From Terracidiphilus sp. (GTDB taxonomy: Bacteria; Acidobacteriota; Terriglobia; Terriglobales; Acidobacteriaceae): a DNA stretch of 64,000 bases. The notes under the pieces are model-generated. The model did not search any database and was not told where the DNA came from. It was given only the letters and a program-made list of their open reading frames with translations. Numbering within the stretch: the first letter of the stretch is position 1; the number at the start of each line of letters is the position of its first letter. Of the stretch, positions 30,031 to 45,340 are shown one piece after another. The stretch covers positions 5,608 through 69,607 of the forward strand of contig DATAVC010000020.1 in NCBI GenBank assembly GCA_036267935.1, given 5' to 3'. The position numbers and the translations under genes are program-made.

Positions 30031-31509
30031 ATGTCTATGCCACTGAAAACACTGTTTCTGAACCCTCCCTCGTTTGAGGGTTTTGACGGCGGAGCAGGAT
30101 CCCGTTGGCCTGCCACCCGCGAGGTTGAATCCTACTGGTACCCCGTGTGGCTCACGTATCCGGCGGGGCTGCTGGAGGGCTCTCGACTGCTCGACGCACC
30201 GCCGCATCACGTTTCGGCCGAAGAGACGATCAAGATCGCGAAGGACTACGAGTTGCTCGTGCTCTTTACGTCGACCATTGGTTGGGAAGGCGATCAACGT
30301 CTGGCGCGAGCGATCAAGAACGCGAATCCCACTATTCGGATTGCGTTTGTTGGACCGCCGGTGACGACGAGCCCCGATCGCGCGTTGAACGAGTGCGAAG
30401 TGCTGGACTTTATCTGCCGCCGCGAATTCGACTACTCGATTGTGGAGTATGCGAACGGCAAGCCGCTGAACGAAATTCTTGGCATCAGCTACAAGCAGGA
30501 TGGCAAGGTCGTTCACAATCCCGATCGCCCGCAAGTGGAAGATCTGGACGCGATGCCGTGGGCCACGAAGGTCTACAAGAAGGACCTGGACGTCACCAAG
30601 TACAACGTGCCGTTCCTGCTGCATCCGTTCATCGCGCTGTACTCAACGCGCGGATGCCCGGCGCAGTGCACCTTCTGCCTGTGGCCACAAACGCTGAGCG
30701 GACATGCATGGCGCAAGCGCTCGAGCGACGATGTGGCCGCCGAGATGGCTTGGGCGAAAAAAGCCTTCCCGCAGGTGAAAGAATTCTTCTTCGACGACGA
30801 TACGTTCAATATCCAGAAGCAGCGCACCATCGAGCTTTGCGCAAAGCTGAAGCCGCTGGGCCTGACGTGGAGCTGCACGTCGCGCGTAACGACCGACCAC
30901 GACACGCTGAAGGCGATGAAGGAAGCCGGCTGCCGGCTGCTGATCGTCGGCTTCGAGTCGGGTGATCCGCAGATCTTGAAGAACATCAAGAAGGGCGCCA
31001 CAGTCGAACGCGCGCGCGCCTTCGCGAAGGACTGCCACGATCTTGGCCTGGTGATTCACGGCGACTTCATTCTGGGCCTGCCGGGCGAGACCAAGGAATC
31101 GATCAACAACACGATCAAGTTCGCCAAGTCGCTGGATGTCGAGACGATCCAGGTTTCGATTGCGCATGCGTATCCGGGCACGGAGTTCTACGAGTACGCC
31201 AAGGCGGGTGGTTTTATCACCAACGAAAAGATGGAAGACGGCGGCGGACACCAGATGGCGCACATCGAGTATCCCGGCCTGCCGACCGACTACGTCATGG
31301 AGATGGTGCACCGGTTCTACGACGAGTACTATTTCAGGCCGAAGGCTGCAGCACGCGTGATCTGGAAGGCCATCGTGAATCGCGATGTGCCCCGTCTCTA
31401 TACCGAAGCCAAGTCGTTTATGAAGCTGCGCGCGCAACGCAACAGGATGGTGAAGGAAGCGCGCAGCCGCCAGGTTGAACCGACAACGCCGGTGGGTGCA
31501 GGCGTCTAG
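30031..31509 (+). CDS. hpnJ: hopanoid-biosynthesis-associated B12-binding radical SAM protein
   Basis: 'LKTLFLNPPSFEGFDGGAGSRWPATRE..SYWYPVWL' is the characteristic HpnJ N-terminus. The radical-SAM cluster is 'CPAQCTFC'. Confidence 0.85.
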   Translation: MSMPLKTLFLNPPSFEGFDGGAGSRWPATREVESYWYPVWLTYPAGLLEGSRLLDAPPHHVSAEETIKIAKDYELLVLFTSTIGWEGDQRLARAIKNANPTIRIAFVGPPVTTSPDRALNECEVLDFICRREFDYSIVEYANGKPLNEILGISYKQDGKVVHNPDRPQVEDLDAMPWATKVYKKDLDVTKYNVPFLLHPFIALYSTRGCPAQCTFCLWPQTLSGHAWRKRSSDDVAAEMAWAKKAFPQVKEFFFDDDTFNIQKQRTIELCAKLKPLGLTWSCTSRVTTDHDTLKAMKEAGCRLLIVGFESGDPQILKNIKKGATVERARAFAKDCHDLGLVIHGDFILGLPGETKESINNTIKFAKSLDVETIQVSIAHAYPGTEFYEYAKAGGFITNEKMEDGGGHQMAHIEYPGLPTDYVMEMVHRFYDEYYFRPKAAARVIWKAIVNRDVPRLYTEAKSFMKLRAQRNRMVKEARSRQVEPTTPVGAGV

Positions 31510-32484: not shown

Positions 32485-33921
32485 CTAGAACTTGCGGAAG
32501 AGGCGCATCAAGCCTTTCGGCTTCAGGTCAGGAACAAGGAATTTTCGCGGCTCGCCTGCGGCCCTGGTGAGCGCCTCTGCGGCAAGATGACCGGAGCGCA
32601 CCCCGCTTTCCATTGTCGACGGCCAGCCTGTGGCGACCCAATCGCCGGCGAGAAAGCAGTTCGGCCATGCGGAGACTGGAGAAGGACGGGCACTGTCGAT
32701 GCCGGGCGGGACGCCAAACGTGGCGTGCACCTCTTTGGTGAGAACGGCTTTCTCGAGCTTGGCCGAAGCAACCGCCGGGAAGAACTCCTTGAGTTCGCGC
32801 AAGGCCTGATCGATCGCCTGCTGCCGCGCGAGTGCAGCGAACGATCGCGACGCACTGACGACGAGTTCAAGATAGCTGCCGGTTCCCTGTCGGTGCGGCT
32901 GCAATCGACTCTTGTTGTACATCCAATGAATCTCACGATCGAGAAGCACGGCATGCTCGAGATCGGTAATCTCGCGGTCGAACCAGAGATGAACGCTGCA
33001 GATGGGCCAATGGCGATGGCGGCTGATTTGTTCCGCGAGCGCGGAGACGCCGGGTGCGGGCGGCATGGCAGGAATCAATTTCGCGGTTGCTTCAAATGGC
33101 AGCGCCAGCACAAGGAAATCGGCGTGAATCGTTCCCGCACGCGTGGACACATTCCATTGCGAAGCTTCCGCATCCCAGGCCGCGGAATCGACCCCGGCAT
33201 GGAGGACCACCGCGCTCCCGCGCGACTCGAGAAAGCGGGCCGCTCCGCTGTAGAGGTCGCTGAGCGGCACGGAGCTCATGCCCATGCTGCCTGCTTCCGC
33301 GGAGTTCATGAAGAGCTCGCGAATAACCTTGACCGCATAGGGGAGAGAGATGCAATCGAGATCGGCATTCAAGGCGCTGGCAAGCACCAGGCGCCAGAAG
33401 CGGTCGATTGCGCCGCTAGTCTGGCCGTTCCGCTGCAGCCAGTCACTAAGTGTCTCGGTTGAATCGCGGGGGACCGGGCGGAGCAACAACTGCCCGAAGG
33501 CGTGCGCGAGGGCCAGCTTGTCGGCTCGCGAGAAGGCCTGCGCTGCCAGCAGCTTTGGCAGACCGTGGAGAGGCGCGGGCAGCGAAGAAGGACCGAGGAT
33601 GGTCCTGCGGCCACCGGGCTCGATCATGGTCATCTCGCGCGTCCAATGAATCTTGTCGTATACGCCGATGCGCTGGTAGAAGCCGACAAGGTTGGTGCAA
33701 CAACCGAACAAGACGTGCTGGCAGTTGTCGATAACCTCGTTGACGCCGGGATGCAGGTACGAAGACGTGCGACCGCCGAGATAGCCGCGCTGCTCGACCA
33801 GTTGGACGCGCAATCTGGCATCGGCCAAGGCGCACGCGGCGCTCATGCCGGCGACTCCGCCGCCTACGACGATCACGGATTGATTCAGACCTTGCGACAA
33901 CGATTCGTACCCTCTCTCCAT
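32485..33921 (-). CDS. hpnE: hydroxysqualene dehydroxylase (FAD-dependent amine-oxidase family)
   Basis: 'VIVVGGGVAGMSAACALADARLRVQLVEQRGYLGGR'. Position is immediately after hpnC-hpnD. Confidence 0.85.
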   Translation of the reverse strand: MERGYESLSQGLNQSVIVVGGGVAGMSAACALADARLRVQLVEQRGYLGGRTSSYLHPGVNEVIDNCQHVLFGCCTNLVGFYQRIGVYDKIHWTREMTMIEPGGRRTILGPSSLPAPLHGLPKLLAAQAFSRADKLALAHAFGQLLLRPVPRDSTETLSDWLQRNGQTSGAIDRFWRLVLASALNADLDCISLPYAVKVIRELFMNSAEAGSMGMSSVPLSDLYSGAARFLESRGSAVVLHAGVDSAAWDAEASQWNVSTRAGTIHADFLVLALPFEATAKLIPAMPPAPGVSALAEQISRHRHWPICSVHLWFDREITDLEHAVLLDREIHWMYNKSRLQPHRQGTGSYLELVVSASRSFAALARQQAIDQALRELKEFFPAVASAKLEKAVLTKEVHATFGVPPGIDSARPSPVSAWPNCFLAGDWVATGWPSTMESGVRSGHLAAEALTRAAGEPRKFLVPDLKPKGLMRLFRKF

Positions 33922-33927
33922 TGGACG

Positions 33928-34836
33928 TTATCCAGCGGCTCTGGCGAGAACCACCCGCATCATTCCCCAACCGAGAATGGCAAGTTTCTGGGCCAGGGGA
34001 ACACTGGCACGCTGCGAGAAAACATCGTAGTCGGCATGTTCGATCTTCTTGAGCAGCGCGTGGTAGATGGAGACGAGCACCCAGAGCGCAGGACGGCTCT
34101 CTCGATGAATCAAGGGCAAGAGCTCTTGCGCCGACTGATAAAACTTCTCGGCACGTTCGCCGATGTCCTTCAGGAGTGCGCGTTCGTGTGCGGAGGGTGC
34201 GGTGCCGAGGCGCCGGTGCAGAAAGGGTTCAAGCGGAACCTCGTGTGCTGCGAGGTCTTCAAGCGGAAGATAGACGCGGTTGCGCGCAGCATCTTCTTGC
34301 ACATCGCGCAAGATGTTGGTGAGTTGGAACGCGACGCCGGTTTCTTCGGCAAGTTTTTCGGCGCGCGGATCGGTGTAGCCGAAGATACGAATACAGACCA
34401 GGCCCACGACAGCGGCAACGAGATAGCAGTAGCGGTAGAGATCGTCGAACGTGGCGTAGGTGTCAGGCGTAGAGCCTGCTTCAACTTTCAAATCCATCGT
34501 GGTGCCGGCGACGAGTTCGTCGAGCAACGTGAGCGGAATATTGAAGCGCTGGATGGCGTCGCCGACGGCGATGAAGACCGGGTCAGCGGTGGCGGCTCCT
34601 CGACTGGCCTCGTGCCATGCCGCGAGCCACGTATCAAGATTCTGACGCCGCTCGTGATGGGGAACGGATTCGTCGTCGCTCAGGTCGTCAGCTTTGCGCA
34701 TGAAGGCATAGATCGCGCAGATGGCGTTCTGGCGTGCAGGAGGAAGGGCAAGAAAGGCGTAGTAGAAATTCTTGGCTTCTCTTTTGGCGATTGCCCTGCA
34801 GATTGCGTAGGAAGAATCGAGTGTTGGTCCCTGCAC
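33928..34836 (-). CDS. hpnD: presqualene diphosphate synthase
   Basis: Squalene/phytoene synthase fold. 'KNFYYAFLALPPARQNAICAIYAFMRKADDLSDD' and 'NILRDVQEDAARNRVYLP'. Confidence 0.85.
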   Translation of the reverse strand: MQGPTLDSSYAICRAIAKREAKNFYYAFLALPPARQNAICAIYAFMRKADDLSDDESVPHHERRQNLDTWLAAWHEASRGAATADPVFIAVGDAIQRFNIPLTLLDELVAGTTMDLKVEAGSTPDTYATFDDLYRYCYLVAAVVGLVCIRIFGYTDPRAEKLAEETGVAFQLTNILRDVQEDAARNRVYLPLEDLAAHEVPLEPFLHRRLGTAPSAHERALLKDIGERAEKFYQSAQELLPLIHRESRPALWVLVSIYHALLKKIEHADYDVFSQRASVPLAQKLAILGWGMMRVVLARAAG

Positions 34837-34849
34837 CAGCTGCCTGCCT

Positions 34850-35815
34850 TTAACGCGGACCCAGGCGCAGGAAGGGCAGAAACTTGCCGCTCACCGCGCG
34901 CAGAGCCAATGCGAGCTTGGTGCGTTTTGAGATGGAAGGCCGGGCGGAGAGAACATCGTAGTCGCGCCGTTCGATGGCCCGTAGAATTTCGAGGCCTCCG
35001 CGACTGAAGAGATCGAGGTCAACGGCCAGGTCACGGCCGACCCTGCCCACCAGCGGCAGCCCCTCTTCAAAGAGACGGCGCGCAAAATCAACTTCGTAGT
35101 CGAGCAGGGCACGAAATTCAGGGGTCGCAATTCCCTTCGCGATCGTCTCTTCGCTCACGCCAAAGCGCTGCATGTCTTCTTGCGGAAGGTAAACGCGCCC
35201 CTTCTTCCAATCGTCGCGCACGTCCTGCCAGAAGTTAGCCAACTGAAGTGCGGAGCACGTGGCGTCGGAGAGCCTGAAGCACTCTTCATCGGCGTAGCCG
35301 CAGGTGTAGAGGACGAGACGGCCCACAGGGTTGGCGGAGTAACGGCAATATCCCAACACGTCTTCCATGGTGCGATAGCGCGTCACGGTCTGGTCCTGGC
35401 GGAAAGCGGTCAGCAGATCCGCAAAGGGCTCTTTCGGGATGGAGCAGACACGAATTGTTTCGGCCAGCGCAACAAAGACGGGATGACGGGCGCGTCCTTC
35501 ATAACAAGCGTCCAGTTCCCTGTTCCACAGATCGAGCAGCGCCAGGGCCGCGGCGGTGTCCCCAACCTCGTCGCCGAGATCGTCGGACATACGGCAATAC
35601 GCATAGATCGCGTGGAAATGGGGTTGGAGGGCCTTGGGCAAGAACCAGGTCGCCACATGAAAGTTTTCGTAGTGCGATTCAGCGAGCTGCTTGCACCACG
35701 CCCGCGCTTCTGCAAGCGTGGGCACAACGGCGGGCATGCGGTACGACGCGGGGAGCGCAGCCCAGCCGCGCTTGAGAAGGGCCTCATTGTCTGGTTGCAA
35801 AATTGCCGCAGTCAT
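34850..35815 (-). CDS. hpnC: hydroxysqualene synthase
   Basis: 'HYENFHVATWFLPKAL', 'YAYCRMSDDLGDE' and 'NFWQDVRDDWKKGRVYLP'. First gene of the C-D-E triplet. Confidence 0.85.
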   Translation of the reverse strand: MTAAILQPDNEALLKRGWAALPASYRMPAVVPTLAEARAWCKQLAESHYENFHVATWFLPKALQPHFHAIYAYCRMSDDLGDEVGDTAAALALLDLWNRELDACYEGRARHPVFVALAETIRVCSIPKEPFADLLTAFRQDQTVTRYRTMEDVLGYCRYSANPVGRLVLYTCGYADEECFRLSDATCSALQLANFWQDVRDDWKKGRVYLPQEDMQRFGVSEETIAKGIATPEFRALLDYEVDFARRLFEEGLPLVGRVGRDLAVDLDLFSRGGLEILRAIERRDYDVLSARPSISKRTKLALALRAVSGKFLPFLRLGPR

Positions 35816-35825
35816 TCAGCGCACC

Positions 35826-37034
35826 TCAAGGAACGATCGCGGTCTTGATCTCGCTGCTGCGTTTCATCAGCTTCTCAAACACGCGATTCAGTTCGTAGAG
35901 ATGAGCCCGGCCGGTGATGAAGGCCTTGGCCTGGAAGCGATCGCTCGCGATGAGGGCGAGCGCCTTGCGGCAGATGGACGGCGTGTGATGGAACGTGGCA
36001 CGCAGAGTGATGTCGCTGTAGTGGATGCGGTTGGTATCGAGGTTGACATGGGTGCCGACCGCACAGCCGCCAAAGAAATTGACGGTGCCGCCTTTGCGCA
36101 CCATCTCGACCGCTTCTTCCCACGCATCGGGAACGCCGACGGCTTCGATCGCGATATCGACGCCGCGACCGTTGGGCGTAAGGGCGCGGGTATCGCGAAT
36201 CGCCTTCCGAATGGAGCTGGTCTGCACCACGTGCGCCGCACCGAGTTGCTTGGCGGCCTCTGCCTGACCTTCGTGCTTGACTACAGCGATGGTCTCGCAG
36301 CCCGCAAGAGCTGCGACGTGGAGAATCATGAGACCCAGCGGGCCGCCGCCAATGATAGCGACCACGTCGCCGGGGCGCGGGTTGGAGTCTTCGAATCCGT
36401 GAACAGCGCAAGCAAGAGGCTCGGTCAGCGCGGCATGCTCGAGAGGAACGTGATCGGGAACATGGAGGGTATTCTTGGCGACGATGCGTTCGGGAATGCG
36501 AATGTATTCCGCATAGGCGCCGTTGTTGAAGAGCAGATCGTCGCAGAGATTTTCCTGGCCGCGTTCACAGAAGTAGCAAGCGCCGCAGGGCGCGGAGTTG
36601 AGTGCAACGACGCGGTTGCCCGTCGTGAATTCGGCTACACCTTCTCCGGCCTCGACAACCGTACCGGCAAGTTCGTGGCCGAAGAGGGCGGGAGGCACGA
36701 TCATCCGCGCGTGATAGCCGCGGCGAAAGACCTTGAGGTCGGTGCCGCAGGTGAGGGCGGCTCCCACTTGCACGATGATTTCACCGCGGGCCGCCTGAGG
36801 AACGGGCACGCTCTCGATACGAATATCTTCGCGTCCGTGCAGGACCGCGGCGCGCATGGTGGCACGGCCATGTTCGATTGCGGTTTCGACGGTGGCGCGG
36901 CCATGGTAGATAGCGGAGTCAACGGTGGCGCGCCCATGCACGATTGCAGTTTCGACGGTGGCGCGGCCATGCTCGATCGCAGTTTCAACTGTCTCGCGGC
37001 CACGCTTGATGACGTCTTTCACTGTACCTGCCAT
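35826..37034 (-). CDS. Zn-dependent MDR alcohol/polyol dehydrogenase with an N-terminal 11-aa tandem-repeat extension
   Basis: 'CGTDLKVF', 'GHELAGTVVEAGEGV', structural-Zn 'CGACYFCERGQENLC' and 'IIGGGPLGL'. The canonical N-terminus 'MRAAVLHGREDIRIE' begins at the internal ATG 36857. The ORF continues in frame to the ATG at 37034 through the repeats. Confidence 0.8.
   Translation of the reverse strand: MAGTVKDVIKRGRETVETAIEHGRATVETAIVHGRATVDSAIYHGRATVETAIEHGRATMRAAVLHGREDIRIESVPVPQAARGEIIVQVGAALTCGTDLKVFRRGYHARMIVPPALFGHELAGTVVEAGEGVAEFTTGNRVVALNSAPCGACYFCERGQENLCDDLLFNNGAYAEYIRIPERIVAKNTLHVPDHVPLEHAALTEPLACAVHGFEDSNPRPGDVVAIIGGGPLGLMILHVAALAGCETIAVVKHEGQAEAAKQLGAAHVVQTSSIRKAIRDTRALTPNGRGVDIAIEAVGVPDAWEEAVEMVRKGGTVNFFGGCAVGTHVNLDTNRIHYSDITLRATFHHTPSICRKALALIASDRFQAKAFITGRAHLYELNRVFEKLMKRSSEIKTAIVP
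36858..37022 (-). repeat. five 33-bp tandem repeats (encode VETAIEHGRAT-type 11-mers)
   Basis: Minus-strand units: gtgaaagacgtcatcaagcgtggccgcgagaca / gttgaaactgcgatcgagcatggccgcgccacc / gtcgaaactgcaatcgtgcatgggcgcgccacc / gttgactccgctatctaccatggccgcgccacc / gtcgaaaccgcaatcgaacatggccgtgccacc. The next 33 nt ('atgcgcgccgcggtcctgcacggacgcgaagat') are a diverged sixth unit. Confidence 0.9.
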
Positions 37035-37043
37035 TCAAAAACC

Positions 37044-38174
37044 CTAAGCCGCTCCACCGCCAAGCACAGGTTCAATCATGATCTTCATCGAATCGGCCTT
37101 GGGGTGCGAGGCTATGTCGATTGCTTCAACCGCCTCATCGATCGGGAAACGATGCGAGATCAGCTGCGTGAGATCAAATCCGCTGCGATAGCCGTTGAAG
37201 ACGAGGTCGGTTACCTCGTCGAGAATGTCGAAGGATGACGAATAGGACCCGAGCAGCGTTTTCTCGTCGACGCAGACATCGGCGGGGTCAAAGGACGATT
37301 CCGCATGTTGCGTCTGTGCGAACAGCATCACTTTACCACCGGGACGGGCAGCATCGATTGCCGTGCGAATCAATGCAGTACCCCCCACGGCGAGAACGAC
37401 GGCATCGGCGCCGCGGCCTTCGGTTTCGGCTAAAACTCTTTCGACCACGTTTTCAGTGCCTGCATGAATTGGATGTTTCAAACCGTATTTGGCTGCAATT
37501 GAGTGCCGCTCGGGATAGAGGTCTGAAGTGAGGACTTTTCCGGCGATCTTTCCAGCCAGCACGGCGTGCATCAGGCCGATGGGTCCCTGGCCGATGACGA
37601 GGACGGTGTCGTCGGACTGCAGGTTCAAGAGCTTTACGCCTTTGAGGACTGTGTTCACGGGCTCGACGAAGGAAGCTTGCTCGAAGGGAACGCCGTCGGG
37701 AATGGGGACCACTCCCCCGTTCGAAACCACGAAGTCCATCACCCGGATGTATTCGGCAAAGCCGCCGCCCGAAGGCTCAAAGCCCGCGGTGACACCGGTC
37801 TTCTTATAGAGAGGACATTGGGCGGGGGTTCCTTTGCGGCAGTAGTAGCACTGGTTGCAAGGCACATGATGGTGCACGACAACCCGTTGGCCAACCTGGT
37901 AGCCGGAGACTCCTTCGCCGGCGGCGACAATGGTTCCCGCCATTTCGTGACCGAAGATGCGAGGAGCGGAATGCGATCCGCTGTGGATCTTTTTGAGGTC
38001 GGTTCCGCAGACGCCGCAGGTGGCGATTTTGACCAGCAATTCGCCGACGTCGAGGCGCGGGACAGGCACGGTCTCGATGCGCATGTCGTTGATACCGCGG
38101 TAGACCACTGCGCGCATGGTGGAAGGAAGTCCGGTTTCGACCAAGCGGTGAGCACTAGAGATTTGGGTAGCCAT
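37044..38174 (-). CDS. Zn-dependent MDR alcohol/polyol dehydrogenase (sorbitol/threonine-dehydrogenase-like)
   Basis: 'CGVCGTDLKK', 'GHEMAGTIVAAGEGV', structural-Zn 'CNQCYYCRKGTPAQC' and 'VIGQGPIGL'. Confidence 0.85.
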   Translation of the reverse strand: MATQISSAHRLVETGLPSTMRAVVYRGINDMRIETVPVPRLDVGELLVKIATCGVCGTDLKKIHSGSHSAPRIFGHEMAGTIVAAGEGVSGYQVGQRVVVHHHVPCNQCYYCRKGTPAQCPLYKKTGVTAGFEPSGGGFAEYIRVMDFVVSNGGVVPIPDGVPFEQASFVEPVNTVLKGVKLLNLQSDDTVLVIGQGPIGLMHAVLAGKIAGKVLTSDLYPERHSIAAKYGLKHPIHAGTENVVERVLAETEGRGADAVVLAVGGTALIRTAIDAARPGGKVMLFAQTQHAESSFDPADVCVDEKTLLGSYSSSFDILDEVTDLVFNGYRSGFDLTQLISHRFPIDEAVEAIDIASHPKADSMKIMIEPVLGGGAA

Positions 38175-38196: not shown

Positions 38197-38871
38197 TTAT
38201 TGCAGAAACGCCTGCAGCGATTCCGCGATGGTTTGGGAAGCCTTTCTACTATTTTCGCCCATCCTGATGAGGGAGGGCCAGTACGAAGGTCGCAGGAGCG
38301 AAGAAAGCACGAATCTGCCGGTTTGGAAGCGGCCATCCGGGGCGATGAAGCGATTGAAATCGGGCAGTTTGGCGTCGAGGGCGTCGCTGACCCCCTTGAT
38401 GGCATAGAAGGGAATGCCCCGCATCTGCGCGAGGCGGGCGATGGCCGCGGCCTCCATGTCGATGAGGGCGACATTGGGGTAGGCGGCGGCAAGGCGGCGT
38501 TTTTCAGTCTCGTCAGCAACCCTCGGGCTTGTGGCCAGCCAAAGCGATCCGGCGTGCGCGTCGCACTGGAAACGCTCTCCGGTCCGGACGTCGATGACGC
38601 CGGCAACATTGTGGGCAGACCCCGGAGGAACTCCTTCCCGCAGAGCTCCTGCCCAGCCCAGGGAAAAAACCAGATCCACGGGAGCGTCGGCTTCGACCGC
38701 AGCGAAGGCGCGCGTGGCAGCGGCTTGACCCGTCCCGGCACAGGCCGCGACATAAAGATTCTCGTCGCGATGGGACCACAGATCGACGCCGTCGCGGCGG
38801 GTGTGTTTCCAGCCGACGACAATGGCCTTCAGTTCGGCAGGCATGGCGGCGATGAGGGCGGTGCGGGTCAT
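38197..38871 (-). CDS. hpnG: hopanoid-associated phosphorylase / adenosylhopane nucleosidase (PNP_UDP_1 family)
   Basis: 'IAAMPAELKAI', 'LGWAGAL' and 'IDMEAAAIARLAQMRGIPFYAIKGVSD' are MTAN/PNP-fold motifs. Lies within the hpn operon. Confidence 0.8.
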   Translation of the reverse strand: MTRTALIAAMPAELKAIVVGWKHTRRDGVDLWSHRDENLYVAACAGTGQAAATRAFAAVEADAPVDLVFSLGWAGALREGVPPGSAHNVAGVIDVRTGERFQCDAHAGSLWLATSPRVADETEKRRLAAAYPNVALIDMEAAAIARLAQMRGIPFYAIKGVSDALDAKLPDFNRFIAPDGRFQTGRFVLSSLLRPSYWPSLIRMGENSRKASQTIAESLQAFLQ

Positions 38872-39263
38872 GCGACATGGTCCTGGATGATCTTGAACAG
38901 CCGCGAACGATGGCAGGCGGATTCATCCTCGCAGAAGCAGCCGATGCTGATGGGCGTGCGCTCTGCGATCTTCGCAAGCAGTTCGACGGTCTGGCGGCCC
39001 GTGGCATCGGCCAGTAGTTCGCGCTCGTAGCGGTCGAAGAGTTTTTTGCGCTGGACAGTTTTATCGGCGCCAAGCGTGCGAATTTGCGTGACGAGCTTGG
39101 CCTCGGGCGCGAGAGTGGGCAGCCAGACATCGAAGTAGCCGTCGGGAACCCAGCGGTCTTTTGAAACGCCGCGCGGCGGATGGCGCGTGACGCCAATGCG
39201 GAGGCCCTGCTCGGGCTTGGCGGGTGTGCCGATCTGGAAGGTGGAGAGGTGCAGTTTGCTCAT
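38868..39263 (-). CDS. DUF488-family protein
   Basis: 131 aa from the ATG at 39263. 'IGVTRHPPRGV...DVWLPTLAPEAKL...LFDRYERELL...ISIGCFCEDESACHRSRL' fits the DUF488 pattern. Stop overlaps the hpnG start (ATGA). The 456-aa ORF in the track is an artefactual extension. Confidence 0.7.
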   Translation of the reverse strand: MSKLHLSTFQIGTPAKPEQGLRIGVTRHPPRGVSKDRWVPDGYFDVWLPTLAPEAKLVTQIRTLGADKTVQRKKLFDRYERELLADATGRQTVELLAKIAERTPISIGCFCEDESACHRSRLFKIIQDHVA

Positions 39264-39285: not shown

Positions 39286-40281
39286 TCACGAGGATGGCGC
39301 GTAGCCGTTGGTACGGAACCAGTCGATCGCCGCGCGCATGGCGGGGTAGACGGGCACGATGCGGAAGTCGAGTTCCTGTTGCGCGCGCGCCGAGGACGCG
39401 AACATCTTCTTGCGGCCCATGCGCACTTCTTCAAGCGTAGCGCGGGGTTCTTTGCCGCGGATGCGACCGGTAATGATTTCTTCGAAGAACGCGTAGGTCG
39501 CGGCGACGACGAAGGGGATTTTGGTTGTGGGCGATGGAATGCCGGTGATGGCCGACATCTTGTCGAGGATCTGCTTGAGGGTGAGGTTCTCTCCGCCGAG
39601 GATGTAACGGCGGCCGGGTGTTCCGGTGGTGAGCGCGGCGACATGAGTGCGCGCGACTTCAGCGACGTCGACGAGATTGAGGCCGGTGTCGACGTAGGCC
39701 GGAAATTTGCGATTGAGGAAGTCGACGAAGATGCGGCCGGTGGGCGTGGGCTTGGCGTCGTTGGGGCCGATGGGCGTCGTTGGATTGAGGATGATGACCT
39801 GCTGGCCGTCCTGGGCGGCGGCGATGGCCTGCTGCTCGGCGAGAAATTTCGAGCGCTTGTAGTGGCCAACCATGTCTTTGATCGATACGGGCGTGTCTTC
39901 GTTGATGACGATACCGTCTTTGCGGAAGTGCATGGTGGCGACGCTGGAGGTGTAGACCACGCGGGGGATCTTGGCTTCGCGGGCGAGACGCAACAGATCG
40001 CGTGTGCCGTCGACGTTGGCGCGGTACATCGTGTCGGGGTCGCGGATCCAGAGGCGGTAGTCGGCAGCAACGTGCATGACGGCGTCGCAACCGGAGAGGG
40101 CGGGCGCGAAGGACGCGGGATTGGCGAGGTCGCCGACAACCGTGTCGCCTGCGATCCCTTCAAGATTTTTGAGGTTGCTGGACTTGCGGACGAGGAGGCG
40201 AAGTTCGGCGCCTTGTGCAGCGAGCGCGCGGGCCACATGATGGCCTACAAAACCGGTTGCACCTGTAAGGAAGACTTTCAT
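39286..40281 (-). CDS. hpnA: hopanoid-associated NAD-dependent sugar epimerase/dehydratase-family protein
   Basis: 'MKVFLTGATGFVGHHVARALAAQGAELRLLVRKSSNLKNLEG', 'YKRSK', and operon context. Confidence 0.85.
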   Translation of the reverse strand: MKVFLTGATGFVGHHVARALAAQGAELRLLVRKSSNLKNLEGIAGDTVVGDLANPASFAPALSGCDAVMHVAADYRLWIRDPDTMYRANVDGTRDLLRLAREAKIPRVVYTSSVATMHFRKDGIVINEDTPVSIKDMVGHYKRSKFLAEQQAIAAAQDGQQVIILNPTTPIGPNDAKPTPTGRIFVDFLNRKFPAYVDTGLNLVDVAEVARTHVAALTTGTPGRRYILGGENLTLKQILDKMSAITGIPSPTTKIPFVVAATYAFFEEIITGRIRGKEPRATLEEVRMGRKKMFASSARAQQELDFRIVPVYPAMRAAIDWFRTNGYAPSS

Positions 40282-40460: not shown

Positions 40461-40889
40461 CTATTCCAGCTTGTCGGGAACGAGGGCGATGTTCTTTTCG
40501 CCGGCGGCCTTGCGCTCGTTGTAGGCCTTCACCCAGTCTTCCCAGTGCTTGCCTGCGGCGCGGTCTTTGCCGCTGAACTCAAGACGCGCGATGTCGGCGT
40601 AGTTGACCTTGCGCTTCTCGGTCGCGCTGGGCGTGAAGTACTGGATATAGGAATCGGCAAGTGTGGTGCCCGTCTGGCGATTGAAGATGTAAGCCTCGAA
40701 CTTTTCGCCGGACTTGAGGGTAAGCGTCACGTCGCCGCGATAGTCAAAGGCTTTTTCAAGGGCCACGCGGAGGTCTTCGTCGTTGGCGAGGGTGGGCACC
40801 CAGCCTTCGAGATTTTCATGCACGGTACCGGGCGCAATCTCCAGCGCCTCCACCTGCTCCCGCGTGTATTTCAGGACCTCGGCGCTCAT
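40461..40889 (-). CDS. hypothetical protein translationally coupled to hpnH (142 aa)
   Basis: ATG at 40889 overlaps the hpnH stop (ATGA). 'MSAEVLKYTREQVEALEIAPGTVHENLEGWVPTL...' is soluble and has no family I recognise. Confidence 0.6.
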   Translation of the reverse strand: MSAEVLKYTREQVEALEIAPGTVHENLEGWVPTLANDEDLRVALEKAFDYRGDVTLTLKSGEKFEAYIFNRQTGTTLADSYIQYFTPSATEKRKVNYADIARLEFSGKDRAAGKHWEDWVKAYNERKAAGEKNIALVPDKLE

Positions 40890-42004
40890 GCGTTGGTCTC
40901 CTCGAAGGTCTCGGCGGAGCTGGCGATCTGGACGAGCGAACCCGGCGCCTGCGATCCCCACTCGTTGAGCTGATTCATCGCGTGTTGGCTCTTGTAGGTG
41001 CTGAAGGTTCCTTTGACCATGCCCCAGAATCCGCTGAGCGAGAGGAAACCGTCGAGGACAGCTGTTGGCTCATAGCCGCAGCTCACCATGCAATTGGCGC
41101 ACTTGGAATTGCCGCTGCCCACGCCGTACTCTTCCCACTTCGTGGTTTCCATCAACTCTTTGAATGTCTCGGCGTAGCCATCCTGGAGGAGGTAGCAGGG
41201 CTTTTGCCAGCCGAAGATATTGAAGGCCGGCGAACCCCAGGGCGTGCAGTCGTAGTTGCGGTCGCCCATCAGGAACTCGAGAAAGAGCGGCGACATATTG
41301 AACTTCCAGGTCTTCTTGCGATTCGACAAGATCGCGCGGAAGAGCTTGCGCACGCGGGCACGGCCCATGAAGTGCGTCTGGTCGGGCGCCTTGTCGTAGC
41401 TGTAGCCCGGCGACAACACGATGCCTTCCACACCGATGGCCATCATCTCGTCAAAATGGGCGCGCACGCTGTTGGGATCGGTGCCATCGAAGAAGGTCGA
41501 GTTCGGCGTGACGCGGAAGCCGCGTTGGACGGCTTCTTTAATGCCTTCGATCGCGATGTCGTATCCGCCTTCGCGGCATACGGCGTAATCGTGGTGTTCC
41601 CGCTGGCCATCGAGATGGACAGAGAACGTCAGATACTTCGAGGGCGTGAATTCGTGCAGGCGCTTCTTCAATTCGAGCGCGTTGGTGCACATGTAGATAT
41701 ATTTCTTGCGCGCAATCAGGCCATTCACGATTTCGACGATCTGGGGATGCAGCAGCGGTTCGCCGCCAGGGATGGCCACCATGGGCACGCCACACTCTTC
41801 AACAGCCGCGAAGCATTCTTCAGGGGTGAGCATGCGCTTGAGCACGTGGGGCGGATATTGCACCTTGCCGCATCCGGCACAGGCCAGGTTGCAGCGGAAG
41901 AGCGGCTCGAGCATGAGCACTGTTGGATAGCGCTTGATGCCCTTGAGTCGTTGCTTCCACACGTAACTGGCAACCGTCCACACCTGGGAAATCGGAATAG
42001 CCAT
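40886..42004 (-). CDS. hpnH: adenosylhopane synthase (radical SAM)
   Basis: 'YPTVLMLEPLFRCNLACAGCGKVQYP' is the characteristic HpnH radical-SAM N-terminus. Adjacent to shc. Confidence 0.92.
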   Translation of the reverse strand: MAIPISQVWTVASYVWKQRLKGIKRYPTVLMLEPLFRCNLACAGCGKVQYPPHVLKRMLTPEECFAAVEECGVPMVAIPGGEPLLHPQIVEIVNGLIARKKYIYMCTNALELKKRLHEFTPSKYLTFSVHLDGQREHHDYAVCREGGYDIAIEGIKEAVQRGFRVTPNSTFFDGTDPNSVRAHFDEMMAIGVEGIVLSPGYSYDKAPDQTHFMGRARVRKLFRAILSNRKKTWKFNMSPLFLEFLMGDRNYDCTPWGSPAFNIFGWQKPCYLLQDGYAETFKELMETTKWEEYGVGSGNSKCANCMVSCGYEPTAVLDGFLSLSGFWGMVKGTFSTYKSQHAMNQLNEWGSQAPGSLVQIASSAETFEETNA

Positions 42005-42030: not shown

Positions 42031-44037
42031 TTACGACGCGCGTTCCATTGCCCGCTTGTAGGTGGTTAACGCTAACAGCGGGAAGTACTGCCGGTACATT
42101 GTGTAGGCCAGATAGAAAACCTTGGGGAATCCCGTGCCGGTGATGATGCCCTGCCGCGTCGGCCCTTCGCCCATCGATTCTTCCCAGCTGCCGTCTTCGA
42201 CCTGGCGTGTGAGCAGCCAGCGAATGCCCTTGGCAATGGAGTCAGACCGATCGTCGCCCGCCGCCAGCAATCCAAGAATCGCCCATGCCGTTTGCGAGGG
42301 CGTGCTGGGCCCTTCGCCGCGCGTATCGGGATCGTCGTAGCTGCCGCATCGCTCGCCCCAGCCGCCGTCGGGGTTTTGCACCATGCGAATCCACTCCGCG
42401 GCCTGCTGCACCTGGGGTTCGTGTTGATCGAAGCCGATGGCTTCGAGTCCGCGCAGCACGAGGAAGGTGCCGTAGATGTAGTTCACGCCCCAGCGGCCGA
42501 ACCAGCTGCCGTCGGGCTCCTGTTCGCGAAGGATGAAATCGATGGCCTTCTGCACGCGCTTGTCTTCGCGGGTATAGCCGTAGCTGGCCAGCATCTCGAG
42601 CATGCGTCCCGTGATGTCGACGGTCGGCGGATCGAGCATCGCGTTATGGTCGGCAAACGGGATGTACTGGAAGATCATCTTCGTGTTGTCTTTGTCGAAA
42701 CTGCCCCAGCCGCCGTTGCGGCACTGCATCGCCCATTCCCATGCGATGGCGCGCTCTGCGACCTGGTGCTGATAGCGCTCACGCGGATTGTCGACCTTGC
42801 TGAGGGCAAGCAACACCTGCGCCGTGTCGTCGGTATCGGGATAGAACTCGTTGTTGAATTCGAAGTACCAGCCGCCGGGTTCGGTATTGGAAACCTTCTT
42901 GGCCCAGTCGCCCTTGTGGCGCACTTCTTTCGAAAGCATCCAGTCGGCGGCCTTGAGCATGCGCGGATCGGTACGGGGCACGCCGGCTTCGCCCAGCGCG
43001 TAGACGGCCTGCGCGGTATCCCACACCGGCGAAACGCACGGCGTCATGCGGAAGGTCGGCTCAGGCATCTCGGGAGTCGGCGCCTGTTCCACACCGAGCT
43101 TCTCAAACTCGTCGCGCGCACGAATGACCTGGGGATCGTCCTCGGAGTATCCGAGGCAGCGCAGCGCAATGATCGCATTCAGCATGGCGGGATAGATGGC
43201 GCCGAGACCGTCGGTCATTTCGAGGCGCTCGAGCATCCACTTCTCCGCACGCTTGAGGGCCAGCCTGCGCAACGGGCGGATGTGCACTGCTTCAGCCAGG
43301 TGGAACATGCGGTCGACCACGAGGAAGAAGTTGCGCCACGAGAAGAAGTGCTTGCGATCGATGCGCACACGCAGAACCGAATTCTCGCGGCCACCGACGA
43401 AGAGCTCCTCAATTCCCTGCTCCGGCGGGATTTTCTTGAAGGGCTTCTTGGCGTAGATGATGGCGAGCGGCACGAGAATGGAGCGCGACCACGCGGAGAT
43501 CTCGTAGATGTTGAAGTAGAACCAGGTGGGGAAGAGAACGATCTCCGGCGGAATGGCGGGGACGGCATCGTAGTCGTACTGGCCGAGCGCACACAGATAC
43601 ATCTTGGTGAAGGTATTGCACTCGATGACGCCGCCGTGGGCAAGAATCCATGCACGACACTTGGCCATACGCGGATCGTGGGGAGCGACGCCCATGAGCT
43701 TTGCGGAGAAGTAGCACTTGACCGAGAGCGAAAGATTGCCGGGACCGCCGGGATAGATGGCCCAGCTGCCGTCTTCGTTCTGATAGCGCCAGATCTCGGT
43801 CATCGCCCGCTGCAGTCGAGCCGGATTGCCGGACTCGAGCAGGGTGTGCACAAAGATGTAGTCGGCTTCGAGCATGGCGTCGGCTTCAAGTTCGCCGCAC
43901 CAGTAGCCATCGGGATGCTGTAACGAGAGAAGGTATTCGCGCGCGCCGAGGATGGCTTTTTGGACGTGCGCCAAATCCTCATCGATGCGGCCGAACCTTG
44001 GTGCCGCGGGAGTTGTTTTCAGTTGCGACTGACTCAT
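42031..44037 (-). CDS. shc: squalene-hopene cyclase
   Basis: 668 aa. Catalytic 'YPDTDDTAQ' (DxDD), with multiple QW repeats ('QNEDGSWA', 'RNGGWGSF', 'QEPDGSWFGRWG', 'QNPDGGWGE', 'QVEDGSWEE'). Confidence 0.95.
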   Translation of the reverse strand: MSQSQLKTTPAAPRFGRIDEDLAHVQKAILGAREYLLSLQHPDGYWCGELEADAMLEADYIFVHTLLESGNPARLQRAMTEIWRYQNEDGSWAIYPGGPGNLSLSVKCYFSAKLMGVAPHDPRMAKCRAWILAHGGVIECNTFTKMYLCALGQYDYDAVPAIPPEIVLFPTWFYFNIYEISAWSRSILVPLAIIYAKKPFKKIPPEQGIEELFVGGRENSVLRVRIDRKHFFSWRNFFLVVDRMFHLAEAVHIRPLRRLALKRAEKWMLERLEMTDGLGAIYPAMLNAIIALRCLGYSEDDPQVIRARDEFEKLGVEQAPTPEMPEPTFRMTPCVSPVWDTAQAVYALGEAGVPRTDPRMLKAADWMLSKEVRHKGDWAKKVSNTEPGGWYFEFNNEFYPDTDDTAQVLLALSKVDNPRERYQHQVAERAIAWEWAMQCRNGGWGSFDKDNTKMIFQYIPFADHNAMLDPPTVDITGRMLEMLASYGYTREDKRVQKAIDFILREQEPDGSWFGRWGVNYIYGTFLVLRGLEAIGFDQHEPQVQQAAEWIRMVQNPDGGWGERCGSYDDPDTRGEGPSTPSQTAWAILGLLAAGDDRSDSIAKGIRWLLTRQVEDGSWEESMGEGPTRQGIITGTGFPKVFYLAYTMYRQYFPLLALTTYKRAMERAS

Positions 44038-44239: not shown

Positions 44240-45340
44240 TTATCGAACCGAGACCGGTTCTCCGCCGCCTGTTGTACCGATTGCCTGAATGATCTCCGGC
44301 GGCAATCCGAAGCGCACGTTTTCCGGCATGACTTCAACTTCTTCGACGCTGGAAAAACCGTTTTGATTCAGATAATTCACCACGTCTTCGACGAGGATCT
44401 CGGGGGCAGATGCTCCCGCCGTTACCGCCACGGTCGATACGCCCTCAAGCCACTTGGGATCGATGGCCTGGGAGTTGTCGATCAGATAGCCGACGGTGCC
44501 AAGATTACGAGAAACTTCGACCAGCCGATTGGAATTGGAGCTGTTGGTCGAACCGACGACGAGCACGAGATTTGCGTTATGCGCGACGTTGCGCACCGCG
44601 ACCTGGCGATTCTCTGTGGCGTAGCAAATGTCCTGGGAGTGCGGTCCGGCAATGTTGGGAAACTTGACCTTGAGTGCGTGAATAATGTCGCGCGCTTCGT
44701 CAAGACTGAGCGTCGTCTGGGTCAGGTAGGCAACGCGATCGGGATCGGGTACAACCAGCGCTTCAACTTCGGCGACGTTGGACACGACTTGTGTCACGTC
44801 GGGCGCCTCGCCCAGAGTGCCTTCGATTTCATCGTGATCGCGGTGGCCGATCAGAACCAGCGAATACCCCTGCTTGGCGAACTTGACGGCCTCGATGTGC
44901 ACCTTGGTGACCAGCGGGCAAGTGGCGTCGATGACCTTGAGGCCGCGGCCCTTGCTGCGGTCCCGCACAGCAGGCGACACGCCGTGGGCCGAGTAGATGA
45001 CGCGCTGTCCATCGGGAACGTCGTCGATCTCATGCACAAAGATGGCGCCTTTTTCGGCTAATTCATTCACAACATACCGGTTATGAACGATTTCGCGGCG
45101 CACGTAGATGGGAGCACCGAAGGTCTCGAGGGCAATTTTGACAATGTCGATGGCGCGTACGACGCCCGCGCAGAACCCGCGCGGTTTCAGCAGCAAAACC
45201 CGCTTCTCGGAGGACGTGGCGGCGCCCAGATTGCCGTTGGGAGTGGTTTCGAGGACAGAAGTCGTCACTTCAACAGTATACCTGTGTGTCGTCAATTTGC
45301 CGATCCGGAGGGGCCCGGGATCAAGGGCTGGTCGACACAT
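44240..45340 (-). CDS. ispH: 4-hydroxy-3-methylbut-2-enyl diphosphate reductase
   Basis: 'LLKPRGFCAGVVRAIDIV', 'VHNRYVV', 'SAHGVSP', 'DATCPLVTKVH' and 'GSTNSSNSNRL'. Start is uncertain (ATG 45340 or GTG 45268); the track ORF over-extends to 45700. Confidence 0.9.
   Translation of the reverse strand: MCRPALDPGPLRIGKLTTHRYTVEVTTSVLETTPNGNLGAATSSEKRVLLLKPRGFCAGVVRAIDIVKIALETFGAPIYVRREIVHNRYVVNELAEKGAIFVHEIDDVPDGQRVIYSAHGVSPAVRDRSKGRGLKVIDATCPLVTKVHIEAVKFAKQGYSLVLIGHRDHDEIEGTLGEAPDVTQVVSNVAEVEALVVPDPDRVAYLTQTTLSLDEARDIIHALKVKFPNIAGPHSQDICYATENRQVAVRNVAHNANLVLVVGSTNSSNSNRLVEVSRNLGTVGYLIDNSQAIDPKWLEGVSTVAVTAGASAPEILVEDVVNYLNQNGFSSVEEVEVMPENVRFGLPPEIIQAIGTTGGGEPVSVR

Follow-up and report, generated by a model that had tools for sequence, protein, structure and literature searches.

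Which enzyme reduces ribosylhopane to bacteriohopanetetrol (BHT), and might it be one of two dehydrogenases encoded within an acidobacterial hopanoid operon? Geohopanes, some of the most abundant molecular fossils, derive from bacteriohopanepolyols (BHPs), which are major membrane lipids. The conversion of ribosylhopane to BHT is the sole core side-chain reaction without a gene, a gap that dates from about 2010–2015. The first-pass annotation of this locus stated that the step has no assigned enzyme; this is still so in papers of November 2025 and August 2026, and our literature search found neither a gene assignment for ribosylhopane to BHT nor Acidobacteria-specific BHT isomers. Acidobacteria rank with the most abundant bacteria in soil and likely contribute much to its BHPs, and a conserved dehydrogenase pair beside hpnG offers two concrete genes to test.

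Two zinc-dependent dehydrogenases within a hopanoid operon

We analyzed a stretch of 64,000 nucleotides from Terracidiphilus sp. (Acidobacteriaceae), hereafter the window. Two zinc-dependent MDR dehydrogenase genes lie on its minus strand, ADH-A (37044..38174, an ORF of 376 aa) and ADH-B (35826..37034, an ORF of 402 aa). Both products carry the Pfam domains ADH_N and ADH_zinc_N, and the matches of the two proteins to PF08240 (84 and 94 bits) and PF00107 (87 and 59 bits) place them in the MDR superfamily. They align with each other at 34% identity across 288 aa (E = 2e-48). The first-pass annotation had described a paralogous MDR pair flanked by hpnG and hpnC, and coordinates, strand and domains all agree with this description. 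The short gaps that it gave were likewise recovered from the sequence: the ATG of ADH-A follows the hpnG stop after 22 nt, ADH-A and ADH-B are separated by 9 nt, and hpnC starts 10 nt beyond ADH-B.

The GHE, CGxD, four-Cys zinc and GxGxxG motifs attributed to the pair are present in both translations, as CGVCGTD, FGHEMAG, CNQCYYCRKGTPAQC and GQGPIG in ADH-A and as TCGTD, FGHELAG, CGACYFCERGQENLC and GGGPLG in ADH-B. The catalytic zinc ligands are C56, H76-E77 and E171 in ADH-A and C96, H120-E121 and E205 in ADH-B; the structural zinc Cys4 sites are C106/109/112/120 and C150/153/156/164, respectively. The catalytic ligands are kept throughout the A and B orthologous groups, with the exception of one degenerate pair (L086), and the Cys4 site and GxGxxG are likewise conserved in the two groups. 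ADH-A has a subfamily insertion, YKKTGVTAGFEPSGGGF, after the structural zinc lobe, a motif kept across the A-group, and the MDR core of ADH-B begins at Met60, giving a 344-aa core plus a repeat. By motif, ADH-A and ADH-B are both catalytically intact zinc MDR enzymes.

The genes around the pair, all on the minus strand, belong largely to hopanoid synthesis. Directly upstream is an HpnG-like PNP_UDP_1 phosphorylase gene (38197..38871; Pfam PNP_UDP_1), a candidate adenosylhopane nucleosidase/phosphorylase. The name hpnG given to it earlier stands by position and literature usage, but its TIGR03468 score of 83 bits lies below the cutoff of 187. It is preceded by a DUF488-N3a gene (38868..39263; Pfam PF22751, 106 bits), hpnA, encoding the hopanoid-associated SDR "sugar epimerase" (39286..40281; TIGR03466, 460 bits, cutoff 368), the small conserved ORF ug3 (40461..40889, start approximate; no Pfam or NCBIfam match), hpnH, encoding the radical SAM adenosylhopane synthase (40886..42004; TIGR03470, 525 bits), and shc, encoding squalene-hopene cyclase (42031..44037), a 668-aa ORF whose L001 and L002 orthologues carry SQHop_cyclase_N and SQHop_cyclase_C. 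On the other side lie hpnC for hydroxysqualene synthase (34850..35815; TIGR03464, 362 bits), hpnD for presqualene diphosphate synthase (33928..34836; best match TIGR03465 at 236 bits, slightly under the cutoff of 278.6) and hpnE for the FAD-dependent hydroxysqualene dehydroxylase (32485..33921; TIGR03467, 428 bits). The eight-gene run from hpnA to hpnE proposed earlier has the neighbors named, but it is longer, with ispH, shc, hpnH and the small conserved ORF upstream on the same strand.

Identity of shc to related loci is 71–89%, and ug3, listed under this name in Table S1 of Sinninghe Damsté et al. 2017 (PMC5462960), has orthologues in 55 related loci (mean identity 68%). An hpnJ-like B12-binding radical SAM gene on the plus strand (30031..31509; its L001 orthologue has B12-binding and Radical_SAM domains) occurs in 37 related loci at a mean identity of 86% and belongs to the conserved neighborhood. 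The DUF488-N3a gene is found in just 4 of 80 related genome loci and is absent from L001 and L002; a search of the DUF488 literature gave no usable function. No promoter-like or terminator-like sites were found on the coding strand in the intergenic gaps from hpnG to hpnC; the scan overall gave fewer sites than shuffled sequence and shows no more than that an operon is not contradicted.

The pair and its linkage to hopanoid genes are conserved

We compared the window with 80 species-level Acidobacteriaceae loci (the best 80 of more than 591 matches in a diverse-alignment scan), with 80 more diverse metagenome loci, and with 11 single look-ups. Because the genome set is confined to Acidobacteriaceae, breadth was taken from the look-ups and the metagenome scan. 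Among these best 80 genome loci, ADH-A directly follows hpnG in 74 of 78 and is itself followed directly by ADH-B in 69 of 79. In the metagenome loci, hpnG immediately precedes ADH-A in 55/61, ADH-B comes right after ADH-A in every case (65/65) and hpnC after ADH-B in 42/45. Mean identity to the window among related genome loci is 73% for ADH-A and 78% for ADH-B, comparable to shc (80%) and hpnH (77%) and above hpnG (53%), and the ADH-A and ADH-B trees mirror each other. We conclude that ADH-A and ADH-B are an ancient, nearly always adjacent tandem pair in Acidobacteriota, and that the pair is fixed inside the Terriglobia hopanoid operon, after an HpnG-like gene and before hpnCDE. Synteny, which the first-pass annotation had proposed to score, is tight and wide in Terriglobia, extending to hpnG, hpnA and hpnCDE. 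Close family members, at about 60% identity or more, come from Acidobacteriaceae alone, and beyond them the identity of full-length relatives falls to 40–46%; named relatives come from Acidobacteriota, cyanobacteria and Chthonomonadales, the latter two not being hpn-linked.

The linkage of these dehydrogenases to hpn genes was already published in 2017 and is not new. Sinninghe Damsté et al. 2017 (Front Microbiol 8:968; PMC5462960) listed ADH-A as ug1 and ADH-B as ug2 and gave their function as "not established". They describe ug1 as a Zn-dependent ADH (~370 aa) behind hpnA-hpnG and ug2 as a Zn-binding ADH (~350 aa) ahead of hpnC-hpnD-hpnE; in Terracidiphilus gabretensis and strain KBS 83, ug1, ug2 and their neighbors are joined in a single run. 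Order and sizes in the window fit this description, and the same order occurs in KBS 83 (L081) and at least 70 other genomes.

Cofactor signatures and family placement

The Rossmann signature of ADH-A is NAD-type, with Asp217 aligned with the Asp of the Thermus sp. ATN1 enzyme TADH (4cpd). That of ADH-B is NADP-type: an acidic residue is absent, and the K-H of its V-K253-H254 motif aligns with the A-R-S of an NADP(H) ketose reductase (1e3j) and takes the place of Glu in an NAD-dependent threonine dehydrogenase (TDH, 2d8a). The B-group keeps this motif as V/G-K/R-H/R and the A-group keeps the Asp, so the split is conserved. From these motifs, we infer a preference for NAD in ADH-A and for NADP in ADH-B.

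Neither protein reached an NCBIfam equivalog cutoff, and the substrate is therefore not readable from sequence. Scores for L-threonine 3-dehydrogenase were far too low with both TIGR00692 (171 bits for ADH-B and 151 for ADH-A; cutoff 458) and NF003808 (165 and 157 bits; cutoff 380). An assignment to sorbitol / L-iditol 2-dehydrogenase failed as well, with human and sheep SDH (1pl6, 3qe3) matching at just 86–107 bits; that name is an automatic JGI label on homologues. The nearest characterized relatives are polyol, ketose, threonine and butanediol dehydrogenases, with substrates of the sugar-alcohol type, and the best family matches are threonine, inosose, iditol and xylitol dehydrogenases. Both enzymes belong to the threonine/polyol-dehydrogenase branch of the MDRs, whose typical substrates are secondary alcohols and ketones, not aldehydes.

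An N-terminal repeat in ADH-B

Residues 1–58 of ADH-B form a tandem 11-residue repeat that the first-pass annotation overlooked and that is absent from most orthologues. It is encoded by a 33-nt tandem repeat (36858..37010, minus strand; 4.6 copies in TRF) with four HGRATVETAIE units. Repeat-bearing homologues measure 402, 413 or 424 aa, corresponding to 4, 5 or 6 units; they occur in just 5 of 72 related genome loci, and sister lineages have no repeat. Unit-to-unit codon changes comprise 21 synonymous and 11 nonsynonymous ones, and a Pfam search with the repeat gave nothing significant. Its hydrophobic moment is 0.35, vs 0.14 for shuffles. In a structure model of ADH-B (pLDDT 71, about 50 in the repeat), residues 2–56 form a helix at low confidence, and the repeat is predicted to be one long amphipathic helix. 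An ADH-B subclade has gained this repeat, which would fit membrane docking.

Pairs outside the full hopanoid operon and their possible substrates

The pair is also found beyond the complete operon. Four loci (L085, L087, L091 and L136) have the order A-B-hpnC-hpnD-hpnE, and in L091 and L136 hpnG, hpnH, shc or other hpn genes are absent within 10 kb of the pair and hpnCDE. Vicinamibacteria-type loci (L088–L090, L141) carry the A-B pair with no hpn genes nearby, and SD6 Acidobacteria (class Vicinamibacteria) are reported to have hpnCDE, to lack shc and BHP genes, and to produce squalene but no hopanoids. Chloracidobacterium thermophilum makes BHPs and has hpnCDE without ug2, and a survey of alphaproteobacterial hpn clusters contains no such candidate dehydrogenase gene. 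By locus-level comparison and the literature, the genes are not present exactly where hpnH/hpnG and BHT are, and the phylogenetic co-occurrence that the first-pass annotation had also proposed to score breaks down in the Vicinamibacteria-type loci and in C. thermophilum. As the phylogenetic profile is mismatched both ways, assignment as ribosylhopane reductase is plausible, not specifically supported. Orthologues from the hopanoid-linked and stand-alone clades are just 44–51% identical, so a change of substrate between them is easy to imagine.

Two possible partner clues were rejected. A 586-aa "MDR-flavoprotein fusion" (P0391) comes from a locus (L092) where an ordinary Acidobacteriaceae operon was assembled with many frameshifts and ADH-A and ADH-B are merged, and an FAD-oxidoreductase beside the A-like gene in Phormidium (L083) is not repeated in a second cyanobacterium (L093).

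The stand-alone pairs raise the question of whether the enzymes form a soluble module for pentoses, polyols or other small molecules, with no hopanoid substrate and an operon position due to history or shared regulation. The Vicinamibacteria-type pairs have QueF-like and proline dehydrogenase genes beside them and nucleoside catabolism genes in the vicinity, an alpha-L-arabinofuranosidase gene adjoins the dehydrogenase in L084 and L089, no hpn genes neighbor the single A-like homologues of cyanobacteria and Chthonomonadaceae, and the top family matches listed above all point this way. We nevertheless hold such a module to be unlikely. The embedded position with gaps of 9–22 nt is kept over SD1-type and SD2-type lineages in far more than 100 loci, a split operon retains one dehydrogenase per half, the conservation of the pair equals that of core hopanoid enzymes, and the hopanoid-linked orthologues have diverged from the stand-alone ones to the extent given above.

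The persistence of hpnCDE beside the pair raises another explanation, in which the enzymes serve squalene synthesis or squalene-level chemistry with the HpnC/D/E block and not the C35 side chain. Outside Acidobacteriaceae, hpnCDE is the most persistent neighbor (the four A-B-hpnCDE loci), ug2 was described as preceding hpnC, and SD6 combines hpnCDE with a missing shc while Vicinamibacteria-type contigs carry the pair. However, HpnC, HpnD and HpnE are reported to suffice for squalene in E. coli (Pan et al. 2015), none of the steps requires a zinc alcohol dehydrogenase, hpnCDE is present without ug2 in C. thermophilum, and the pair does not adjoin hpnCDE in the Vicinamibacteria-type loci; we regard this explanation as improbable.

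That one enzyme is the general ribosylhopane reductase of hopanoid producers is scarcely credible and already contradicted by the distribution of the gene: hpnG adjacency in Terriglobia and a step without an assigned enzyme speak for it, but the close family is restricted to Acidobacteriaceae with its next relatives at 40–46% identity, cyanobacterial and Chthonomonadales relatives are not hpn-linked, the hpn clusters of model BHT producers contain no such gene, and C. thermophilum is without ug2. Neither enzyme can be universal for the step.

A proposed role in side-chain redox chemistry

We tentatively favor a role of ADH-A and ADH-B as a hopanoid side-chain redox pair, which is quite possible given their place in the operon. 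We infer that the two genes are co-transcribed and that their products act on the C5 side chain that extended hopanoids derive from ribose. ADH-B, of NADPH type, would convert ribosylhopane to bacteriohopanetetrol by reducing its open-chain aldehyde. ADH-A, of NAD type, would oxidize a neighboring hydroxyl, turning either the C-35 hemiacetal into a ribonyl lactone or the C-34 secondary alcohol into a ketone, and the two could act in sequence or as a hetero-oligomer. The cell-free reduction in Methylobacterium studied by Bodlenner et al. in 2015 reportedly used NADPH; ribosylhopane reductase activity is known from cell extracts alone, and no sequence family has been defined for it. Intact catalytic sites, close linkage, conservation at the level of shc and hpnH, mirrored trees, the conserved cofactor split, relatives with substrates of the sugar-alcohol type and the ADH-B repeat speak for a side-chain role. 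A single reductase is enough for the step, yet two are conserved, which counts against such a role, as does the rarity of the repeat.

Within this broad proposal, it is rather doubtful that one of the pair, most likely ADH-B, is the reductase of ribosylhopane to BHT in this lineage. A fuller version is similarly speculative: ADH-B would be the missing NADPH ribosylhopane reductase of Terriglobia and ADH-A an NAD side-chain dehydrogenase, together forming a lipid-anchored "polyol pathway", possibly as a hetero-oligomer, that sets the redox state of the C35 head group, with the stand-alone Vicinamibacteria pairs as soluble-pentose ancestors. The first-pass annotation had considered the dehydrogenases the right kind of protein for ribosylhopane reduction. 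Position, linkage and the NADP-type signature of ADH-B agree with this view, whereas hpnG-less pairs, ug2-less producers and membership of a secondary alcohol/ketone family do not. Because ribosylhopane to BHT is still without an assigned enzyme, ADH-A and ADH-B are testable candidates for it, ADH-B more than ADH-A. Should either enzyme prove to be the reductase, heterologous reconstruction of the pathway would become possible, and the step would have been solved by different enzymes across phyla. If the pair instead modifies BHT or acts at the squalene level, Acidobacteria would have hopanoid chemistry beyond current lipid surveys.

Comparison with known systems

The genes are the same as ug1 and ug2 of the 2017 paper; the A-B unit with its mirrored trees, the NAD/NADP split, the pairs beside hpnCDE alone, the stand-alone Vicinamibacteria-type pairs and the N-terminal repeat are new here. 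That paper suggested HpnA for the ribosylhopane step (PMC5462960). HpnA is also an NAD(P)-dependent oxidoreductase of the operon, but, unlike ADH-A and ADH-B, it belongs to the SDR superfamily; it is reportedly dispensable for BHT in Burkholderia cenocepacia and missing from some BHT producers.

Closest in sequence is the polyol/threonine MDR branch, with xylitol dehydrogenase (7y9p), 1e3j, 2d8a/2dfv, butanediol dehydrogenase (6ie0) and sorbitol/L-iditol 2-dehydrogenase. These enzymes share with ADH-A and ADH-B the fold, the Cys/His-Glu/Glu catalytic site and the Cys4 zinc site, and they provide the best sequence matches. However, the scores of both dehydrogenases lie far under all equivalog cutoffs, both have Lys where the branch usually has His after C-G-T/S-D, and the branch is without the subfamily-specific insertion of ADH-A. 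The top solved-structure match of ADH-A is TADH (4cpd; 141 bits over residues 20–364, a low similarity), which has Asp at the cofactor-discriminating position, as ADH-A does. Unlike ADH-A, TADH is a stand-alone, broad-substrate enzyme, unpaired and with no linkage to lipid genes.

In fungal pentose catabolism and in the sorbitol pathway, an aldose reductase using NADPH acts first and a polyol dehydrogenase using NAD+ second. The proposed combination of an NADP-type and an NAD-type enzyme resembles these two-cofactor polyol pathways by analogy only: there the reductase is usually an aldo-keto reductase and the substrates are soluble, whereas here two MDR paralogues would act on a lipid-anchored substrate.

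The dehydrogenase pair lies within a hopanoid operon

ORF calls with curated-model and Pfam assignments placed the two dehydrogenase genes, ADH-A (37044-38174) and ADH-B (35826-37034), inside a co-directional run on the minus strand from ispH to hpnE. The run comprises ispH (about 44240-45340; ORF, with a LYTB domain in the orthologous genes of loci L001 and L002), shc (42031-44037; ORF), hpnH (40886-42004; TIGR03470, 525 bits), a small ORF (40461-40889), hpnA (39286-40281; TIGR03466, 460 bits), a DUF488-N3a gene (38868-39263; Pfam PF22751), a PNP_UDP_1 phosphorylase gene named hpnG after the literature (38197-38871; TIGR03468, 83 bits, below the cutoff of 187), the ADH pair, hpnC (34850-35815; TIGR03464, 362 bits), hpnD (33928-34836; TIGR03465, 236 bits) and hpnE (32485-33921; TIGR03467, 428 bits). 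The gaps flanking and separating the two ADH genes, read directly from the sequence, are 22, 9 and 10 nt. The coordinates, motifs and gene order of the first-pass annotation are therefore correct, and its observation is confirmed.

Among the neighbours, the small ORF directly 3' of hpnH (about 141 aa; no Pfam or NCBIfam match) is kept in 55 related loci at a mean identity of 68% and corresponds to 'ug3' of Sinninghe Damsté et al. 2017 (PMC5462960). Wedged between hpnA and hpnG, with a 4-nt overlap at the hpnG start, the DUF488-N3a gene occurs in just 4 of 80 related genomes (L011, L019, L025 and L030), is missing from the close relatives L001 and L002, and may be 'ug4' (hypothetical protein, about 130 aa; PMC5462960). 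Conservation within the operon is by far lowest for the hpnG-like phosphorylase (35-79% identity, mean 53%). The neighbourhood's most conserved gene (mean identity 86%, 37 loci) is an hpnJ-like B12/radical SAM gene that runs the other way (30031-31509, +); the acidobacterial genomes, C. thermophilum excepted, are reported to have an incomplete set of the cyclitol-ether genes hpnI, hpnK and hpnJ (PMC5462960).

The linkage of ADH and hopanoid genes has been in the literature since 2017, when three hopanoid gene clusters were described in Acidobacteria. Cluster C contains hpnA, hpnG and ug1 (ADH-A) and cluster A contains ug2 (ADH-B), hpnC, hpnD and hpnE. In Terracidiphilus gabretensis the clusters are all joined together, and strain KBS 83 comes close to this arrangement (PMC5462960). 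We found the same gene order in KBS 83 (L081) as in the window. In Table S1 of that study ug1 (about 370 aa) appears as a Zn-dependent alcohol dehydrogenase and ug2 (about 350 aa) as a Zn-binding one, the function of both being given as "not established" (PMC5462960). Other literature naming hpnC, hpnD and hpnE together with "alcohol dehydrogenase" contributes nothing further.

The linkage is conserved across Terriglobia

Species-representative genomes were scanned with an alignment of the ADH-A subfamily, and the best 80 of >591 matches were taken as loci, all of them from Acidobacteriaceae (64-84% identity). Window proteins were mapped onto these loci and counts were made where enough flank was available. 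Among these best 80 of >591 matches, an hpnG-like gene lies immediately 5' of ADH-A at 74 of 78 loci and ADH-B immediately 3' at 69 of 79. At the 10 loci without a downstream ADH-B, Granulicella and Edaphobacter among them, the run stops at ADH-A, in agreement with the published split between clusters C and A (PMC5462960). Mean identity to the window was 80% for shc, 79% for hpnA, 78% for ADH-B, 77% for hpnH, 75% for hpnC, 73% for ADH-A, 66% for hpnD, 64% for hpnE and 53% for hpnG; the constraint on ADH-A and ADH-B is therefore that of the core hopanoid enzymes.

Seeding a metagenome scan with distant A-like sequences gave 80 more diverse loci, which were annotated using HMMs derived from the genome loci. 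Here the hpnG-like gene immediately precedes A at 55/61 loci, ADH-B immediately follows at 65/65, and hpnC comes next after ADH-B at 42/45. At L130, L148, L158, L162 and L163 (about 12.1-14.1 kb in each), hpnC and hpnD 3' of the pair appear fused into an ORF of about 650 aa, a feature reported for subdivision 2 Acidobacteria (PMC5462960). The hpn linkage of orthologues in related genomes, on which the first-pass proposal depended, was borne out in both sets. The pair is conserved, co-directional, tightly spaced and catalytically intact, and it is fixed between hpnG and hpnC across Terriglobia; the two genes are probably co-transcribed.

Two uncharacterised dehydrogenases, one with an N-terminal repeat

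ADH-A and ADH-B both carry ADH_N and ADH_zinc_N domains (Pfam), intact catalytic Cys, His-Glu and Glu ligands, a four-cysteine structural zinc lobe and GxGxxG, and are 34% identical over 288 residues. Neither reached a curated equivalog threshold (top matches 100-170 bits vs cutoffs of 380-550), the top models being threonine 3-dehydrogenase, scyllo-inosose 3-dehydrogenase, and idonate and galactitol-phosphate dehydrogenases. The closest solved structures are Thermus alcohol dehydrogenase, xylitol dehydrogenase, NADP(H) ketose reductase, threonine dehydrogenases and an uncharacterised Sinorhizobium enzyme. Many homologues are named "L-iditol 2-dehydrogenase", a label assigned automatically by JGI. 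Near homologues carry the name Terracidiphilus sp., which places the source of the window in Acidobacteriaceae (subdivision 1). Each of the two proteins belongs to a known enzyme superfamily and is itself uncharacterised. All compared A- and B-group sequences have Lys in the motif C-G-T-D-L-K (ADH-A residues 56-62, ADH-B residues 96-101), whereas the aligned structures 4ej6, 2dfv, 1e3j and 4cpd have His after C-G-T/S-D-x. We take this to be the usual proton-relay position, with a subfamily-wide departure.

A 33-nt tandem repeat (36858-37010, minus strand; about residues 9-59) gives ADH-B, within its N-terminal 58 residues, four tandem copies of the 11-residue unit HGRATVETAIE. Homologues have 3-6 units, with 4, 5 and 6 units giving 402, 413 and 424 aa. 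The repeat recurs in L003, L004, L006, L019 and L021, is confined to a narrow Terracidiphilus subclade, and is absent from closely related lineages and from 67/72 related genomes. Differences between units are mostly synonymous (21 vs 11) and copy number shifts in frame, a combination that speaks for translation of the repeat. An 11/3 helical wheel places Ala, Gly, Val and Ile on one face, the hydrophobic moment is 0.35 (0.14 ± 0.07 in shuffles), and a low-confidence structure model makes the repeat a single long helix; a Pfam search gave no family match for the region. It may be a membrane-docking helix, which would slightly favour a lipid substrate, but in the narrow subclade only.

The pair also occurs without hopanoid genes

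In a search of 1.84 billion cluster representatives, a tight ADH-A clade stood apart from the next full-length relatives, whose identity falls to 40-46%. These share the ADH-A subfamily insertion YK..G.TAGF.P.GGGFAEY and the GSYSS motif, neither of which is in ADH-B. An Acidobacteria MAG (L085) has the order ispH-shc-hpnH-hpnA-A-B-hpnC-D-E, with hpnG missing; L087 has hpnG-like-A-B-hpnC-D-E; L091 and L136 have A-B-hpnC-D-E and no other hpn genes within 10 kb. Elsewhere the pair exists without hopanoid genes: at L088, L089, L090 and L141 it adjoins QueF-like and proline dehydrogenase genes. The L089 protein falls in a 90% identity cluster with proteins named Vicinamibacteria. Subdivision 6 genomes are reported to be capable of making squalene (hpnCDE) and to be without shc or other BHP genes (PMC5462960). 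A degenerate pair stands alone at L086 (10001-12064), its A copy having lost the structural zinc cysteines and its B copy the catalytic Cys (LTGGTT) and the E-P motif. L083 and L093 (cyanobacteria) and L084 (Chthonomonadaceae) have a lone A-like gene in unrelated surroundings. A 586-aa MDR fusion protein (L092:10001-11761) was discarded as an artefact of a frameshift-rich assembly, in which the entire hopanoid operon is fragmented.

In a neighbour-joining tree all first genes form one group and all second genes another, with mirrored branching; by this topology the A/B duplication is older than the compared lineages, both genes having travelled together.

A GH51-type alpha-L-arabinofuranosidase gene adjoins the ADH gene(s) at L084:11120-13069 (Chthonomonadaceae) and L089:13022-15010 (Vicinamibacteria-type), a possible hint at pentose-related substrates for relatives not linked to hopanoids. 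That the pair itself acts on a soluble pentose or polyol, its hopanoid linkage being a historical remnant, we consider improbable. Outside Acidobacteriaceae the squalene genes are the neighbours that persist most; a role linked to them is less probable still, and their pathway has no step requiring such an enzyme.

A candidate role on the hopanoid side chain

The first-pass annotation proposed both dehydrogenases as candidates for reducing ribosylhopane to bacteriohopanetetrol (BHT). Its premise holds: according to a November 2025 survey the enzyme is still to be established, with no obvious candidate in the vicinity of alphaproteobacterial hpn clusters, and an August 2026 review still draws the step without an enzyme. 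HpnA, and neither ug1 nor ug2, was suggested for it in 2017 (PMC5462960). ADH-B would be the better candidate of the pair, yet we find it unlikely that it reduces ribosylhopane to BHT. The claim is weakened by phylogenetic profiles that mismatch both ways: the pair occurs in a class that reportedly lacks hopanoids, and is absent from C. thermophilum (PMC5462960), as is any such gene near the alphaproteobacterial clusters (November 2025 survey). It cannot be general. The first-pass interpretation is supported in part: the linkage, the unassigned step and the NADP-type signature of ADH-B speak for it, and the profile mismatch speaks against it. New here are the structure of the pair, its cofactor split and its wider distribution; they sharpen the hypothesis and lower its prior.

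We tentatively favour, at somewhat less than even odds, a Terriglobia pair acting on extended hopanoids at their ribose-derived side chain, where we infer its substrate to lie. The pair follows the enzyme exposing that ribose, its relatives are dehydrogenases of the sugar-alcohol type, and an NADP-type reductase with an NAD-type dehydrogenase would suit aldose/polyol/ketose chemistry. These two types form the classic aldose to polyol to ketose (or lactone) arrangement. Where the second Rossmann strand ends, every A-type sequence has Asp (TSD, VSD, ASD, TTD), and every B-type sequence has a small residue and then Lys/Arg and His/Arg (AVVKH, AVGKR, ALGRR). By Rossmann-fold specificity rules, such residues indicate NAD(H) versus NADP(H); judged by these signatures, ADH-A should prefer NAD(H) and ADH-B NADP(H). 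In pairwise alignments the Asp of ADH-A matches that of the Thermus enzyme and the Lys-His of ADH-B aligns with Ala-Arg-Ser in the NADP(H)-dependent ketose reductase, whereas the NAD-dependent Pyrococcus threonine dehydrogenase has Glu at the Lys-His position.
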